NCBI GenBank assembly: GCA_017618175.1
Contig: JAFZUT010000023.1
Coordinates: 10,996-74,995 of the forward strand
Length of the DNA stretch: 64,000 nucleotides
Direction of reading: 5' to 3'
Source: Alphaproteobacteria bacterium
Lineage (GTDB): Bacteria; Pseudomonadota; Alphaproteobacteria; Rs-D84
In this document: positions 1,870 to 53,867 of the stretch, one piece after another
Numbering within the stretch: position 1 is the stretch's first letter
Layout: every line of letters starts with the position of its first letter
Program-made: the position numbers and the translations under genes
The notes under the pieces: model-generated
The model's input: only the letters and a program-made list of their open reading frames with translations
The model's database searches: none
Told to the model about the DNA's origin: nothing

Positions 1870-2020
1870 AAACCGGCGGAAATCCGCCGATTTTTTGTAT
1901 TCAAACTGGTCAAAAAAGGTACCTTTTTGTCCACCACTTTTTTTAGAAAGTGTGATTCAGTAAAATCAATGACTTACGAAATCTTGCGGGGTGGTCAAAA
2001 AAAGGTACCTTTTTGTTACC
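1870..2020. repeat. Conserved ~150-bp intergenic element, copy 1 (terminator hairpin plus two AAAAAGGTACCTTTTT palindromes 86 bp apart)
   Basis: Aligns with 53167-53318 with about ten mismatches/indels. 16-bp perfect palindromes at 1913-1928 and 1999-2014. Lies directly 5' of a paralogous secreted-protein gene in both copies. Confidence 0.85.
1874..1896 (+). terminator. Intrinsic terminator after the hemolysin-III gene (forms the 5' end of the conserved element)
   Basis: CGGCGG-aaat-CCGCCG hairpin followed by a T6 run. Confidence 0.7.
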
Positions 2021-2049
2021 ATATATACCAGGTAAAAAGAGGGGAAAAT

Positions 2050-2613
2050 ATGAGTAAAAAATTATTATTCGGGCTAATTGCATCTGTTTTATCAATCAAC
2101 GCATACGCAACATCATCCACCGTCACATCACGGGATTATGTTGATAATGTCGTTGCCACCAAACAGGCAAAAATTCCGGCGCAATCGGGCGACTATGTCG
2201 TAATGTATCCAAACAGTGAAAATGACGAAGACGACGGTGAAATCGGCATGCGTGCGATAATAACCGATGTTGGTGATTATGACGAAGGTACCGAATTGGT
2301 GACGGTTGGTGCGATAAATTCCGCCCTGCAAGATAGACAGAATCAAATTTCTGCGGGTACCAGTGGCAATTTGGTGACATATACCGGGACGGCGGGTTCG
2401 GTTGGTTCGGCATCGGTATATAACGGTTCAAATGCATACAGTGGTCAAACAACATCCCTGGTCCAGGCGCAACATGTTAACGCGGCGGCGGCGAATGCAT
2501 TTAATGCACATATAACGTGCAATACATACGCAACACCCAATGACCCAACCAGTGAATGCGTGTTGTGGAATGTAAATAACCTGTCGGGGACATATGTACC
2601 GCAAAACCAATAA
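2050..2613 (+). CDS. Secreted fibre-like protein, paralog A (signal peptide, TVTSRDYVD N-terminus, VTYxxxAG repeats, C-x11-C-VLW motif)
   Basis: ATG 2050 is preceded by AGAGGGG. 187 aa with an AYA/T signal-peptidase site. N- and C-terminal motifs are shared with 2752-3765 and 53358-53867. The ORF-track start at 1864 runs through the conserved non-coding element and is not used. Confidence 0.75.
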   Translation: MSKKLLFGLIASVLSINAYATSSTVTSRDYVDNVVATKQAKIPAQSGDYVVMYPNSENDEDDGEIGMRAIITDVGDYDEGTELVTVGAINSALQDRQNQISAGTSGNLVTYTGTAGSVGSASVYNGSNAYSGQTTSLVQAQHVNAAAANAFNAHITCNTYATPNDPTSECVLWNVNNLSGTYVPQNQ

Positions 2614-2751: not shown

Positions 2752-3765
2752 ATGAACAAGAGATTTTTATTTTGTATATTGGGAATGATTTTAACATTGC
2801 CGGCATATGCGGACCCGGTCACAGTGACCAGTCGTGATTACGTAGATACCACGGTTGGTGCCCGTCAAAACAAGATTGCGGCCGGTACGGGCGACCGTGT
2901 TGTGACATATTCGACAACGGCGGGCCAAATCGGTTCGCGTGCGATATTGGATGATTTAACCGGCACAACAACGACGGATACAAACCTGACCACCGCCGAG
3001 GTAGCCGAGAACGCAATATACAGTAAAAATCAAGAGGTGTTAAATATTGGTGCACCAAATGTTTTGACATACAGCGGTAATGCCGGCACATTGACATCGA
3101 CCCCGATATATGATTCAACGTTGAACACGTTTTCCAATGGGTTGGTTGATGCGGGAACGTTAAATACCGCAATGACAACGGCGGCGAACGATGAAATGAC
3201 ATGCGCCGAATATGCAACACCGGGTGATGCGACCACGGAATGTATATTATGGGAAATAAATACATCCGCCACGGCGCCATTGACCACAACGGCGTATTTA
3301 CCGGCAAATATCGCTGGAACATCGTATTGTTATAAATCGCATGACGCCAGGTATAATGGTCGTAATCAATGTTCTACGACAATGTATAATGCGTTTAACG
3401 CGGGCGAATGGGGCACGGTATTCCCGTATGGCGAGGTCAGTGGTATAAGTGTATGCAGTAATATCGAACCATCAATAAAATATGAATATGATTGGGGCAA
3501 TTCTTATCCATACCAGGTATCAACGAATCAAAGCGGTGTGCAATCACAATACGATGCGTGGGTCAGTGGCGGTCGCCCAACAACACCCGTTGGCGGGTAT
3601 TGTTATTGCAAACTGACCAATCCATCTGTTGCGGGTGCGCGTTGGGTGTTCCGGTACTCGCGCTCCGTTTCGGTCTGTGCGTCCTACTGTGCGATCAACT
3701 GCGCGTTCAACGTCCAGGCCTACGCCGACTTCCGTGGGGCCGTCTTCGGGGGTGTCGCGCAATGA
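2752..3765 (+). CDS. DGR target protein: secreted fibre-like protein (paralog B) with a C-terminal variable region
   Basis: 337 aa with signal peptide ...LPAYA/DP. TVTSRDYVD, VTYSxxAG repeats and a C-x11-C-ILW motif are shared with paralog A. An extra ~140-aa C-terminal domain has VR as its last 44 codons. Confidence 0.9.
   Translation: MNKRFLFCILGMILTLPAYADPVTVTSRDYVDTTVGARQNKIAAGTGDRVVTYSTTAGQIGSRAILDDLTGTTTTDTNLTTAEVAENAIYSKNQEVLNIGAPNVLTYSGNAGTLTSTPIYDSTLNTFSNGLVDAGTLNTAMTTAANDEMTCAEYATPGDATTECILWEINTSATAPLTTTAYLPANIAGTSYCYKSHDARYNGRNQCSTTMYNAFNAGEWGTVFPYGEVSGISVCSNIEPSIKYEYDWGNSYPYQVSTNQSGVQSQYDAWVSGGRPTTPVGGYCYCKLTNPSVAGARWVFRYSRSVSVCASYCAINCAFNVQAYADFRGAVFGGVAQ
3627..3758 (+). repeat. 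DGR variable repeat (VR)
   Basis: Matches TR at a constant offset of +326 with no indels. 117/132 positions are identical, and all 15 differences lie opposite TR adenines. Confidence 0.95.
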
Positions 3766-3792
3766 TGTTATCGCAGACCGTAAACCTTTTCC

Positions 3793-3830
3793 GCATATCA
3801 CGCACCGGAGAATCCGGTGACGTGATATGC
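3793..3830 (+). promoter_or_regulatory. Strong hairpin/cruciform ~35 bp downstream of VR (candidate DGR target-recognition structure)
   Basis: GCATATCACGCACCGGA-gaa-TCCGGTG(a)CGTGATATGC: 17-bp stem with one bulged A and a 3-nt loop. Flanked by the direct repeat CCGTAAACC (3778-3786 and 3830-3838). Confidence 0.6.
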
Positions 3831-3952
3831 CGTAAACCGTCACCGTGTGTGCGCGCGCAATGTGCGCGCATGCACGGTGTCATAAAAAATTCCCAATACG
3901 GGAATAGGCTGTATCGCCGTATCCAGTTGGTGGCCCTTTGGGTGGCCTGTTT

Positions 3953-4084
3953 TGTTGCGGGTGCGCGTTGGGTGTTCCAGAACTCGAACTCCGTTTCGAA
4001 CTGTGCGAACAACTGTGCGAACAACTGCGCGAACAACGTCCAGAACAACGCCGACTTCCGTGGGGCCGTCTTCGGGGGTGTCGC
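3953..4084 (+). repeat. DGR template repeat (TR), non-coding template for mutagenic retrohoming
   Basis: 25 adenines, comprising 11 AAC codons, 2 CAG and 1 GAC in the VR frame. 15 are substituted in VR. Contains three tandem 12-bp units TG(T/C)GCGAACAAC at 4002-4037. Confidence 0.95.
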
Positions 4085-4296
4085 TCCTTGGGATTGTGAA
4101 TACAGGGAAAACCTTTTGCCAACCTGCGGGACAGTGCCATGGCACTTTTATGCCTTTGGATAAACATCATCAAGGCGGGGGGGTATAGCCTGAGCCCCGG
4201 TTGTATGACCGGTGTGCCAAATACAAAACGTAGGGGATGTTTGGGCCAGTAGTTTGTTCTGTATCGTGACGAACGCCCGGAACATCCAATAAAAAA

Positions 4297-4629
4297 ATGA
4301 CTTTGGATGAAATAGAAAAATTTAGTAAGACCGAATGCCCGCGATTTTCGCAATTTGCCCGGGAACAGTTGCCTATGCCCGGTGTAAAAAAATACCTGAA
4401 TGATATCTTGAATCGCGAAATATTCGTCACAGATTTCAAAATTACAAAATCTAAACGCAAAGAGGGAACAGAATGTATGCAATTCCAATTTAAGTTGGAT
4501 AATCAGGTATGTGTCGCATTTACCGGCAGTGCCGTTTTGATGGACCAGATGCAATCTGCACGTGAAAATGACAAAATTCCCTTTGTGGGAACAATAGTCA
4601 AAATAGATAAATATTATTCTTTTTCTTGA
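4297..4629 (+). CDS. DGR accessory protein candidate, 110 aa, not recognisable as Avd
   Basis: ATG 4297. Stop lies 4 nt before the RT start, suggesting translational coupling. The sequence alternates hydrophobic and polar residues (strand-like, e.g. FVTDFKITKSKRKEGTECMQFQFKLDNQVCVAFTG), is near-neutral, and I recognise no four-helix-bundle Avd pattern. Confidence 0.6.
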   Translation: MTLDEIEKFSKTECPRFSQFAREQLPMPGVKKYLNDILNREIFVTDFKITKSKRKEGTECMQFQFKLDNQVCVAFTGSAVLMDQMQSARENDKIPFVGTIVKIDKYYSFS

Positions 4630-4633
4630 ATCA

Positions 4634-5635
4634 ATGAAAACATATAAAAATCTGTGGGATAAATTTATATCCGTTGAAAATTTCGAACTGGCCGCGCGTC
4701 GCGCCGTTAAAAGTAAAAAATCAAAAAAATCTGTGCAATATTTCTTGGAACACAAAGATGAACTGATTCAAAAACTGCGAACCAGTTTAATTAACGGAAC
4801 ATTCAAAACATCACAATATAAAATATTTACAATATATGAACCCAAAAAACGCGAAATATATAAATTGCCACTGTATCCCGACCATGTCCTGCATCATGCA
4901 TTGATAAATATCCTGGGGCCGATTTGGCAGAAAATGTTTATTCATGATTCATACGCATGTATCCCCGGGCGTGGATTACACGCCGCATCGCGCCGGACCA
5001 TGGATTTTGTGCGCAGAAATAAATATGTGTTGCAATGTGATATTCGTAAATTCTATCCAAGTATAAATCATAAAAAAATGATTGGGATTATCGCGCGTAA
5101 AATTCATGATAGGCGAATATTAAAAATACTGAAAGAAATCGTTTTTTCGGTCGGTGGCGAAACAAATTTGCCCATTGGAAATTTGACCAGTCAATGGTTG
5201 GGAAATGTGTACTTGAACGAACTGGATTATTTTGTAAAGCATATATTACATTGGCGTGACTATATACGGTATTGTGATGATTTTTGCCTGTATGGAAATA
5301 ACAAACATCAATTAAAATATATGTTAAGTAATGTAAAACGGTTTATAGAAATAAATTTGTTCATGTCTTTTTCACGAACAATTGTTCGTGAAACAAAAAA
5401 TGGAGTAGATTTTATTGGTTATCGACATTTTAGAAAATTTGTGTTGTTGCGGAAAAAATCGGCACTAAAAATAAAACGCAGAATATCAAATATAATCAAG
5501 TATCATGATTGGTCTGGACATTGTGTCGGGCAAATTGCCGCCGCATATGGATGGTTGAAATGGGCATGTACATACAACCTTAGAAATAAAATTTGTCAAG
5601 AAAAATGTGGACTTTTTGATTTAATGATAATATAA
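4634..5635 (+). CDS. DGR reverse transcriptase
   Basis: 333 aa with RT motifs: PLYPDHVLHHAL, LQCDIRKFYPSI, the DGR-typical IGNLTSQWLGNVYLNELD, catalytic YCDDF, and FIGYRHF. Confidence 0.92.
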   Translation: MKTYKNLWDKFISVENFELAARRAVKSKKSKKSVQYFLEHKDELIQKLRTSLINGTFKTSQYKIFTIYEPKKREIYKLPLYPDHVLHHALINILGPIWQKMFIHDSYACIPGRGLHAASRRTMDFVRRNKYVLQCDIRKFYPSINHKKMIGIIARKIHDRRILKILKEIVFSVGGETNLPIGNLTSQWLGNVYLNELDYFVKHILHWRDYIRYCDDFCLYGNNKHQLKYMLSNVKRFIEINLFMSFSRTIVRETKNGVDFIGYRHFRKFVLLRKKSALKIKRRISNIIKYHDWSGHCVGQIAAAYGWLKWACTYNLRNKICQEKCGLFDLMII

Positions 5636-52017: not shown

Positions 52018-53136
52018 ATGGAATTTTCTGTGTTTCGTCAGGTTTTAATCCGGGCGTTGGGTCACATGCAGTCTATTGTTGAAAAACGTGCAACTTTACC
52101 GATTTTGATGAATGTTAAATTGGATGTGGGTGATGATTTGGTGTTGTCTGCAACCAATGTAGATTTAGAATTGGTCGAACATGTGGCCGCCGATGTGACG
52201 TTGGGTGGAAGAATCACTGTGCCGGTTCAAATGCTGTACGACATTGTTCGTAAATTGCCGGACGATGCGGAAATTTCTTTCAAACAATCGGGTGATGCCT
52301 TGGTCGTGACCAGTGGTCGTGCGGTGTTCCATTTGCCGACTTTACCGGCGGAAAATTTCCCGGCTATGGCGGGCAGCAACCTGACCACAAAATTCCAAAT
52401 GACGACCGGTGATTTGGCGCACCTTATCAATCAAACAAAGTTTGCAATTCCAACGGACGATGTGCGTTATCATTTGGGCGGAATTTATTTCCATATTTCT
52501 AATGATGATGGTAAAAATAAATTGACGGCGGTTGCAACGGATGCCCAGCGTATGGCACTGTGTGCGATGAACGCCCCGGCGGGCAGTGCGGATATGCCGG
52601 CGGTTATTTTGCCACGCCGCGTGATTGGCGAATTGTCAAAATTGTTAGAGGATGCAACCGTTGACGATGTCAATGTTGAATTGTCTGATACCAAGGCGCG
52701 TTTCACAATTGGTGCCGCCATTTTAACCAGTAAATTGGTCGATGCCCAATATCCAAACTATCGCGTTGTTATACCTAAGGGTAATGACAAGATTGCGATT
52801 ATGGACCGGAAACAATTCTTGAACGCGGTTGATTTGGTTTCGGTGGCCAGTATTGATAAAACCAAATCTGTTCAGTTGACTTTCTCGATGAATAAATTGG
52901 TTGTCAATGCATCCAGTCCAGATGCCGGCACCGCGACCCAGGAATTAGATATTGAATACAATGGCGATGCATCATTCAGTGTGACATTTAATGTAAAGTT
53001 CCTTATGGATGTTGCGGGCCAGGTCGAAGGTGAAAAATTCCAAATGGAAATGCAGGATCCGCTTTCGCCAACAATTATTAAATCCACCAACAAAGATACA
53101 GATGCGTTGTTCATTTTAATGCCAATGCGGATGTAG
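52018..53136 (+). CDS. dnaN: DNA polymerase III beta sliding clamp
   Basis: 372 aa, three-domain clamp pattern, C-terminal ...LFILMPMRM. Confidence 0.93.
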   Translation: MEFSVFRQVLIRALGHMQSIVEKRATLPILMNVKLDVGDDLVLSATNVDLELVEHVAADVTLGGRITVPVQMLYDIVRKLPDDAEISFKQSGDALVVTSGRAVFHLPTLPAENFPAMAGSNLTTKFQMTTGDLAHLINQTKFAIPTDDVRYHLGGIYFHISNDDGKNKLTAVATDAQRMALCAMNAPAGSADMPAVILPRRVIGELSKLLEDATVDDVNVELSDTKARFTIGAAILTSKLVDAQYPNYRVVIPKGNDKIAIMDRKQFLNAVDLVSVASIDKTKSVQLTFSMNKLVVNASSPDAGTATQELDIEYNGDASFSVTFNVKFLMDVAGQVEGEKFQMEMQDPLSPTIIKSTNKDTDALFILMPMRM

Positions 53137-53166
53137 GTGTTAGTGGTTAGTGGATAGTGATTAGTG

Positions 53167-53318
53167 AAAACCGGCGGGAATCCGCCGGTTTTTGTGTGCA
53201 AACTGGTCACAAAAAGGTACCTTTTTGTCCACCACTTTTTTTAGAAAATACGATTCAGTAAAATCAATGACTTACGAAATCTCGCGGGGTGGTCAAAAAA
53301 AGGTACCTTTTTGTTACA
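53167..53318. repeat. Conserved ~150-bp intergenic element, copy 2
   Basis: See copy 1. Terminator hairpin CCGGCGG-gaa-TCCGCCGG followed by a T-run. Palindromes at 53211-53226 (18 bp perfect including the flanking C/G) and 53297-53312. Confidence 0.85.
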
Positions 53319-53357
53319 CTATAAACATACCAAACAAGCATAACAAAGGAAGGGAAT

Positions 53358-53867
53358 ATGAGGATTTCAATTCTTAGCATCGGTACAATTGCATCGGTTT
53401 TAGCGTTCAACGCATACGCGGTATCATCCACCGTCACATCCCAGGATTACGTCGATGCAAGGGACGCGTTGAAACAAAATTTAATCGAAGCGACCGGCAA
53501 TATTTTTCCGGTCGGCAGTGTTGTCGAGACAACCGATGAAGATGGTGAGGTCATGCAACGCGGAATTTGCAATAGCATTGCAGATACATTTGGTGATTGT
53601 CGTAATGATTTCTTGGTGACACGGGATTTATTGGAAAGTGCGACAAATAATGTGGCGGATAATCTGCCGGAAACAACCGTCACATATAAAACGTGTTATC
53701 AGGAAGTAAATGGTGATTGCATACTTTGGAATTTAAGTGATAAAGATGTTTATGGGGCGGAACATTGTACATGGTCCAGTGATTGTAGTTCGGGGTGCCC
53801 CTATGGAGGAAACGGAGCTTGTAACAATGGGGTCTGTGATTATAGCGATGGGTGCATGATGTACTAA
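53358..53867 (+). CDS. Secreted Cys-rich fibre-family protein, paralog C
   Basis: AAGGAAGGGA RBS. Signal peptide ...FNAYA/VSSTVTSQDYVD. C-x8-C-ILWNL motif. Cys-rich tail CTWSSDCSSGCPYGGNGACNNGVCDYSDGC. Confidence 0.75.
   Translation: MRISILSIGTIASVLAFNAYAVSSTVTSQDYVDARDALKQNLIEATGNIFPVGSVVETTDEDGEVMQRGICNSIADTFGDCRNDFLVTRDLLESATNNVADNLPETTVTYKTCYQEVNGDCILWNLSDKDVYGAEHCTWSSDCSSGCPYGGNGACNNGVCDYSDGCMMY

Follow-up and report, generated by a model that had tools for sequence, protein, structure and literature searches.

The stretch of DNA analysed here (the window; 64,000 nucleotides, C15:10996-74995) belongs to an 891,628-bp (0.89-Mb) assembly of 29 contigs that is 96% complete. The host is an alphaproteobacterium from gut or rumen that belongs to the Candidatus Enterousia group (order Rs-D84) and is uncultured; the homologues of the recombinase dealt with below stem from MAGs labelled Candidatus Enterousia or Alphaproteobacteria, sampled from rumen and gut. 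Enterousia (order Rs-D84) has been described as a group of gut bacteria with genomes below 1 Mb and scant biosynthetic capacity, in an account that makes no mention of inversions (PMC12306168).

Two similar non-coding elements lie in the window, one between hlyIII and a gene for a secreted protein (copy A, paralog A), the other between dnaN and a second gene of the same family (copy C, paralog C; Table 1). Alignment of positions 1800-2200 with 53097-53500 bears out the ~93% identity of 1870-2020 and 53167-53318 given in an earlier note on this DNA (about 10-11 differences over ~152 bp), as well as the divergence of the paralogs beyond the element: similarity falls after GTTAC and returns at the signal-peptide codons. 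The palindrome AAAAAGGTACCTTTTT starts at 1913, 1999, 53211 and 53297 and is found nowhere else in the window, with 0 expected from 100 shuffles, and its centres are indeed 86 bp apart in both copies. The supposedly identical 52-nt core, on the other hand, is broken by three mismatches (GTGT/ATAC) around 1955-1958.

Each element had also been credited with a terminator-like hairpin and T-run closing the upstream gene. A terminator scan called this structure at 1874-1889/1896, yet it does not belong to hlyIII or dnaN alone: in at least 17 copies of the element, the left palindromic site is preceded at 16-21 nt by the end of a GC hairpin with a T-run, and this recurrence at many loci assigns the hlyIII and dnaN 'terminators' to a repeated cassette. 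TAGTGRT heptads, which place a stop codon in each of the three frames, precede the hairpin at 53137-53167 in the window and lie upstream of about 7-10 other modules. Heptads and terminator together fit an insulator that would keep an OFF switch silent, the terminator of copy A being predicted to shield the switch from hlyIII read-through.

Table 1. Parts of copies A and C of the module, in window coordinates.
Feature	Position	Strand	Remarks
Copy A terminator, CGGCGG-AAAT-CCGCCG + T-run	1874-1896	+	Terminator scan
Copy A left recombination site, TGGTCA-AAAAAGG-TA-CCTTTTT-GTCCACC	1907-1935	.	Flipped-copy breakpoints inside palindrome
Copy A left palindrome	1913-1928		Presumed crossover TA 1920-1921
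Copy A invertible core, 70 bp	1929-1998	+	Majority ('standard') orientation, presumed OFF
Copy A IHF-consensus match, AATCAATGACTTA (consensus WATCAANNNNTTR)	1964-1976	+	Near middle of 86-bp segment
Copy A right recombination site, TGGTCAA-AAAAAGG-TA-CCTTTTT-GT	1992-2016	.	
Copy A right palindrome	1999-2014		Crossover TA 2006-2007
Copy A fixed extended -10, TGT-TACCAT	2014-2022	+	Directly outside right site
Paralog A, 187-aa secreted YVD-family protein	2050-2613	+	Gene behind switch A
Copy C insulator: TAGTGRT heptads, hairpin CCGGCGG-GAAT-CCGCCGG, T-run	53137-53193	+	After dnaN
Copy C left recombination site	53204-53233	.	Palindrome 53211-53226, crossover TA 53218-53219
Copy C invertible core, 70 bp	53227-53296	+	Standard orientation; IHF consensus 53262-53274
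Copy C right recombination site	53290-53314	.	Palindrome 53297-53312, crossover TA 53304-53305
Copy C fixed extended -10, TGT-TACACT	53312-53320	+	
Paralog C, 169-aa secreted cysteine-rich YVD-family protein	53358-53867	+	Gene behind switch C

Copy number and conservation

Instead of the two copies assumed previously, BLAST of the element against the 0.89-Mb assembly returned about 30 matches. The palindrome (A[GC]GTAC[GC]T-type core) is present 58 times in the genome, always within modules and never elsewhere, and these 58 sites, arranged in pairs or triplets, delimit 28 segments of 85-86 bp, counted from crossover to crossover (the core between the palindromes measures 70 bp). The segments are spread over 17 contigs, one of them adjoining a recombinase gene, and more than 12 module copies are located at contig ends; the presence of such modules would explain the breaks that assemblies of these genomes have at these loci. 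Listing the downstream genes, as had been proposed in the earlier note, places ~28 modules before genes of a single family, here termed the YVD family: wherever the downstream flank is readable, the module lies in one and the same orientation just in front of a family gene, at a distance of about 35-75 nt from the start codon. The sole apparent exception to this orientation rule is the locus with a flipped core at C26:6087 (see below).

Among 14 copies, the median pairwise identity amounts to 94.6% for the module from IR to IR, as against 56% in the 5'UTR/leader, 69% in codons 1-30 and 51% in the remainder of the gene. The module is thus held constant while its surroundings drift, in agreement with the original remark that non-coding DNA is more conserved here than coding DNA, and two readings of the element find support, namely non-coding DNA that is linked to the paralogs and either has a function or has been homogenised, and a promoter module. 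A passive repeat without function, that is, the gene-conversion-homogenised 5' region of a recently expanded family or a MITE-like selfish element, would be compatible with the many copies, the terminal palindromes and the species specificity of the DNA, which gave no BLAST match in 40 relatives. However, gene conversion of 5' ends alone would not yield a module so much better conserved than the leader and coding DNA on the same side. Many copies scattered at random had been named as the mark of a selfish MITE; the copies are indeed many, but they are not random, neither position nor orientation deviating from the pattern described in copies with readable flanks, and the homology runs on into the signal-peptide codons. 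Moreover, the sites, their spacing, the TGTCCA end, the T-run and the extended -10 are kept in species whose sequences have otherwise diverged. We consider a passive repeat very unlikely for these reasons. Since BLAST of the element gave no match, the relatives in question were located through recombinase homology combined with a site-pattern search.

Three of the loci (C2:51541-51712, C26:25229-25400 and C17:13851-14022) are triple-site arrays, in which two adjoining 85/86-bp segments have a common middle site. In two of them the array separates family genes that diverge from each other, and in the third it stands in tandem ahead of one gene; nested or alternative inversions could take place in such arrays.

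Probable recombination sites, flipped copies and a solo site

At C26:6089-6190, the 70-bp core is reverse-complemented between standard outer flanks, with the terminator on one side and GTTACCAT, leader and gene on the other, and both junctions fall within the palindromes. This is one flipped core among about 27 copies in the genome. In the sister genome G081, whose recombinase is 93% identical, 16 loci were read: nine are standard, two contain a variant-B core in standard orientation, and three (L164, L165, L166) of about 14 copies are flipped. A further G081 locus (L171; G081:C7:31650-32300) has a family gene behind a single site that is fused to both outer flanks and without any core; it looks like the product of a deletion between two sites, and the gene would be locked as a result.

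Genomes with the closest recombinase (G081-G086) show a strong excess of the site pattern, mostly as pairs about 86 bp apart; in ten other genomes of the same genus, including the three without an Mpi homologue, it is at background level. Two of the former, G084 and G083, have asymmetric AA/TT-centred sites, AAAGGAACGTTT (AAAGG-AA-CGTTT), the members of a pair being inverted and 85-87 bp apart, which is the layout that a serine invertase requires. In the genome studied here, the crossover centre is a symmetric TA, and the asymmetry of the half-sites is in direct orientation, the left-outer half-site resembling the right-inner one and the left-inner half-site the right-outer one. The 26-bp inverted sites with asymmetric crossover of the Hin/Gin type are therefore not what is found in this genome, inverted sites being a feature of the related AA/TT-centred species. 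Owing to the symmetric TA, the sites themselves do not impose inversion over deletion, and the direct layout of the half-sites is compatible with both.

Other assemblies of the same species were retrieved via five exact proteins and compared at five loci, with copy C represented in four of them. The loci A, C, C3:7457 and C7:322 were standard throughout and C26:6041 was again flipped, so that the opposite orientation was found at none of the five loci; given this constancy per locus across assemblies, the states could be fixed. The flipped junction TGGTGGACAAAAAGGTACCTTTTTGTTAC had no match in the scanned metagenome contigs, and a scan of the same contigs with a 22-mer of the core hit four unrelated contigs, all of them without recombination sites; the species seems to be absent from this metagenome collection. 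The 22-mer in question, TTCAGTAAAATCAATGACTTAC, is exact in these four contigs (L127-L130), which range in GC content from 0.33 to 0.64 and are phage-like in some cases; in L130 three tandem IHF-consensus matches coincide with it. With about 0.2-1 such hits expected by chance, four represent a mild excess.

The sites might, alternatively, serve mainly for recombination between loci, reshuffling the gene family and the chromosome through cassette or promoter swaps, large inversions and deletions. As the sites are near-identical and share the symmetric TA crossover, any pair could recombine, and the solo-site deletion, the head-to-head and tandem triple-site arrays and the more than 12 contig ends inside modules can all be quoted in favor of such a role, although repeats explain contig breaks equally well. 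An identical protein (P0020) is encoded behind an A-type core in one sample (L152) and behind a B-type core in another (L153), which could mean that cores are exchanged between loci or that the contig of L153, a short one, is chimeric. The regular 86-bp unit and the orientation-dependent promoter described below favor local switching instead, and we regard recombination between loci as the main function of the sites as improbable. The two activities can nevertheless coexist.

The recombinase

Besides two large serine recombinases and four tyrosine recombinases, the genome encodes one small serine recombinase. The latter has 199 aa (C9:153-752, minus strand) and consists of a Resolvase domain and a weak C-terminal HTH_7, and its best PDB matches are DNA invertases. 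Residues 3-197 of 199 match the NF009949 family, 'master DNA invertase Mpi family', with E = 9e-81 and a score of 270.4 bits, 1.6 under the curated cut-off of 272, while the next-best family has E = 7e-7. Homologues are present in 25 of 28 same-genus genomes, in 1-4 copies each and with scores of up to 317 bits, some above the cut-off; in 14 control genomes, only Bacteroides thetaiotaomicron exceeded it. The catalytic motif GYIRVSS, which includes the catalytic Ser, and the RLGR motif are kept across 54 homologues.

A module in front of a family gene on the opposite strand has its left site 40 bp away from the recombinase start codon. The arrangement recurs in the relatives: upstream of the recombinase gene lies an IR-bounded segment, and beyond that a divergent gene for a secreted protein. 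In L078, the ~140-bp IR-bounded segment next to the recombinase gene is inverted relative to L070 and L062, with both flanks collinear. We infer that the C9 recombinase acts in trans on the sites of the ~28 modules. A contig labelled Bacteroides fragilis from a metagenome bin (L104) encodes a recombinase 67% identical to the C9 enzyme and has a matching layout, in which a segment between IRs is accompanied by a secreted-protein gene in divergent orientation; either the contig is alphaproteobacterial and was mis-binned, or it hints at an exchange across gut phyla.

The findings on sites and enzyme also bear on the suggestion that the palindromes form a paired operator for a dimeric regulator. 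In such a static regulatory module, a repressor or activator would loop the 86 bp, and the flips would be rare fixed accidents. Perfect palindromes about 8 helical turns apart, the overlap of the right palindrome with the promoter spacer and the identical orientation per locus across independent assemblies would suit this model. It does not account well for the four copies flipped independently and the one precise deletion product, together from two species, for asymmetric sites that are inverted rather than direct in relatives, or for a putative Mpi-family invertase linked to the modules here and in relatives, with the adjoining segment flipped between genomes; nor was a candidate regulator identified. 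With flipped cores, a solo site and the nearby putative Mpi-family invertase, the palindromes behave as recombination sites, and we judge a static operator pair to be rather unlikely.

Predicted promoter architecture and IHF-consensus sites

This genome typically uses extended -10 promoters: a whole-genome search for a -35 element with at least 5/6 bases, a spacer of 16-18 bp and TGnTAnnnT identified 79 sites, many of them textbook-like. A conserved TG[TC]-TAC(AC/CA)T borders the right site on its outer side as a fixed element in all copies of the module; without their TG extension, the hexamers TACACT and TACCAT would be weak -10s. Standard copies have GTCAAA at the -35 position, or TGGTCA at a 19-bp spacer, and a sigma-70 scan of a standard copy detected no promoter. 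Upon flipping, the left-inner TGTCCA (the left end of the core in copy A) supplies TGGACA at a 17-bp spacer in every copy (18 bp in some G081 copies), which gives the form TGGACA-N17-TGnTACCAT, and the T7 run (1938-1944 in copy A) becomes an A7 tract just upstream of this -35. Only the -35 (TGGACA) and the A-tract are carried by the segment, then, and the extended -10 is outside it. Because the 79 sites include the naturally flipped copy at C26 but not a single standard copy, we infer that the standard orientation represents the OFF and the flipped one the ON state. Read in this way, about 26 switches would be OFF and one ON in the genome studied, and three would be ON in G081. The variant-B copies, the C9:793 copy beside the recombinase gene and L174 have GGACA or TGGTCA at 17-18 bp as assembled; here flipping may change little, and expression may be leaky or constitutive.

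Two other possibilities were considered and discarded. Promoter candidates inside the core (TAAAAT, and TTGATT-N18-TAAAAA) are without the TG extension and the -7 T typical of this genome, and slipped-strand switching at the homopolymers is at odds with tract lengths that are nearly constant among copies.

The position of the -10 also bears on the proposal of a small RNA or structured 5' leader. The palindromes could pair in RNA, and a terminator is located upstream; with the predicted -10 downstream of the entire module, however, most of the module would be untranscribed in the direction of the gene, flipped copies retain the sites and not a strand-specific fold, and an Rfam search assigned no family (best E = 0.55). 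An RNA function of the module strikes us as the least credible of the alternatives.

A perfect match to the IHF consensus begins at position 44 of 86 in 23 of the 28 segments, where 0.44 matches would be expected at the genome density of 0.18 per kb. Diverged relatives keep the consensus positions and vary at the N positions (TGAC, TTAC, TAAC, TCAC, TAAG), the match being lost in two more distant copies, and genes for HU-like, IHF-alpha-like and IHF-beta-like proteins are present. A length of 86 bp is far below the persistence length of DNA, and the placement of the consensus suggests a synapse that would be assisted by IHF.

The secreted protein family

An HMM census of the genome yielded a family of ~40 genes, about 27 of which lie behind a module. 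The proteins are small and secreted, with an N-terminus comprising a signal peptide followed by T-V-T-S-[RK]-D-Y-V-D...K-Q-x-K-I. They have no match in Pfam or NCBIfam, their homologues are 'hypothetical proteins' of uncultured Alphaproteobacteria, and an AlphaFold2 model of paralog C (mean pLDDT 64.6) found no fold match in the PDB.

A different conserved leader is found at family genes that have no switch (C2:21690, C7:16647, C9:55606, C16:6095, C16:11256 and C17:18619; L154-L157). It consists of CCCCGA...TCGGGGTGC followed by the hairpin ACCGTCAATTTCCATTGACGGT with a T-run, and a canonical promoter, TTGACC-N17-TGATAGAAT, lies in front of it; L154, with its non-inverton paralog, is one of the examples. 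This is probably a terminator-forming regulatory leader RNA, in which case the family would have two alternative control devices.

The window also contains a complete diversity-generating retroelement (DGR; 2752-5635), with a VR at 3627-3758 and a TR at 3953-4084 that differ solely at template adenines, and an RT at 4634-5635. Its target gene belongs to the YVD family and begins 139 bp after paralog A. As no T-run terminator intervenes, the DGR target, and possibly the entire cassette, might be co-transcribed from the switch.

Discussion

Taken together, these observations make it probable, in our estimation, that the element is a portable phase-variation cassette and part of a multi-locus inverton regulon, in which one Mpi-family enzyme flips ~28 switches. 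The cassette would comprise, in this order, a terminator (often after three-frame stop heptads), the 86-bp invertible segment, the fixed extended -10, a short leader with RBS and the signal peptide. The palindromes would be hix-like sites, composed of two 11-13-bp A-tract half-sites around the central TA and recognised in trans by the single small serine recombinase of the Mpi master-invertase family. Bending at the central IHF-consensus site would bring the two sites together in so short a segment, and flipping of the core would change the sequence beside the right site from GTCAAA or TGGTCA (19-bp spacer; OFF) to TGGACA (17 bp; ON), with the A7 tract upstream of the flipped -35 acting like a proximal UP element. 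With ~28 switches before most of the ~40 family genes, each switched separately, cells would display changing subsets of the proteins, and flipping may be ongoing within populations.

The closest mechanism among known systems is the Bacteroides Mpi regulon, and the closest layout is that of the mpl promoters of Mycoplasma penetrans. Master-invertase phase variation is known mainly from Bacteroides, where Mpi-type invertible segments are roughly 170-230 bp long. The relatives of our organism carry AAACGTTCGTTT-type sites, which we take to fit the Bacteroides IR consensus ARACGTWCGT. In B. fragilis, the single serine master recombinase Mpi inverts at least 13 dispersed regions, seven of them capsule promoters (PMC5903667, PMC4611039), and a paper cited in PMC5903667 states in its title that the repeats of the Mpi regions resemble hin repeats; the count of invertible regions given in PMC7641763 is 28. 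Common to B. fragilis and the present system are a small serine recombinase, probably of the same family, many dispersed IR-flanked segments before genes for surface structures, hix-like sites and the gut habitat. Here, however, an alphaproteobacterium with 0.89 Mb of DNA is the host, segments are 86 bp long with a symmetric central TA, and apparently only the -35/UP half moves while the -10 is fixed outside; a protein family takes the place of the glycan operons, and no UpxY/UpxZ layer was seen. The inverton density is about 31 switches per Mb, as against those 28 regions in a genome of about 5.2 Mb.

The promoters of the mpl genes of M. penetrans are inverted with the aid of tyrosine-type recombinases, on longer segments with 12-bp repeats. 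As relayed in PMC10502178 from Horino et al. 2003, there are 38 mpl (P35 lipoprotein) genes, each with an invertible promoter of its own. A reduced genome, a large surface family (38 genes there, about 40 here), inversion per gene and combinatorial display are features of both systems, whereas the proteins are unrelated and our organism would rely on an Mpi-type serine invertase and hix-like sites of 26-30 bp.

The Hin/hix system of Salmonella and the Gin/gix system of phage Mu share with ours a small serine recombinase with C-terminal helix-turn-helix, and sites in which two ~12-bp A-tract half-sites enclose a 2-bp crossover. The segments inverted by Hin and Gin measure 1-3 kb, the reaction depends on Fis and an enhancer, the crossover dinucleotide is asymmetric, and each enzyme serves one switch, with the gene inside or beside the segment. 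No kb-long segment, Fis/enhancer dependence, asymmetric crossover or one-switch-per-enzyme relation was seen here; the 70-bp core is too short for a Hin-type enhancer and has an IHF consensus instead. In E. coli fimS, the tyrosine recombinases FimB/FimE invert 314 bp with a complete promoter inside, at a single locus. Like the switches proposed here, fimS is a short invertible promoter element controlling a surface structure, and its inversion depends on bending by IHF; unlike fimS, these switches would involve a serine enzyme, 86 bp, a split promoter and ~28 loci. We know of no Mpi- or Hin-type switch as short as 86 bp, and no account of such a switch set was found in the literature searched; to our knowledge it would be the shortest and densest set of invertons. 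It differs from the known systems in five respects, namely lineage, segment size, symmetric crossover, split promoter and density.

A broader reading goes further and is more doubtful, being possible at best in our view. One Mpi-type invertase would run an expression lottery over ~28 IHF-bent 86-bp invertons that complete promoters, by bringing a -35/UP half to a fixed -10, and do not carry them. As the crossover dinucleotide is the symmetric TA, deletion of switches by this enzyme, with locked solo sites as the outcome, and recombination from one locus to another would also occur. The DGR, which mutates one family member, would bring the total to three stacked layers of surface variation in a gut symbiont with less than 1 Mb of DNA.

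Conclusions

Uncultured gut Alphaproteobacteria of the order Rs-D84, with genomes below 1 Mb, appear to have recruited the enzyme family of the Bacteroides master invertases, and the switches would control about 3% of all their genes. If the regulon operates as proposed, a minimal serine-invertase switch would be smaller than thought, at 86 bp and probably enabled by IHF bending, and would follow a split-promoter design in which inversion exchanges only the -35/UP half. Surface variability would then be central to these genome-reduced symbionts, which most likely face hosts, phages or partner cells.
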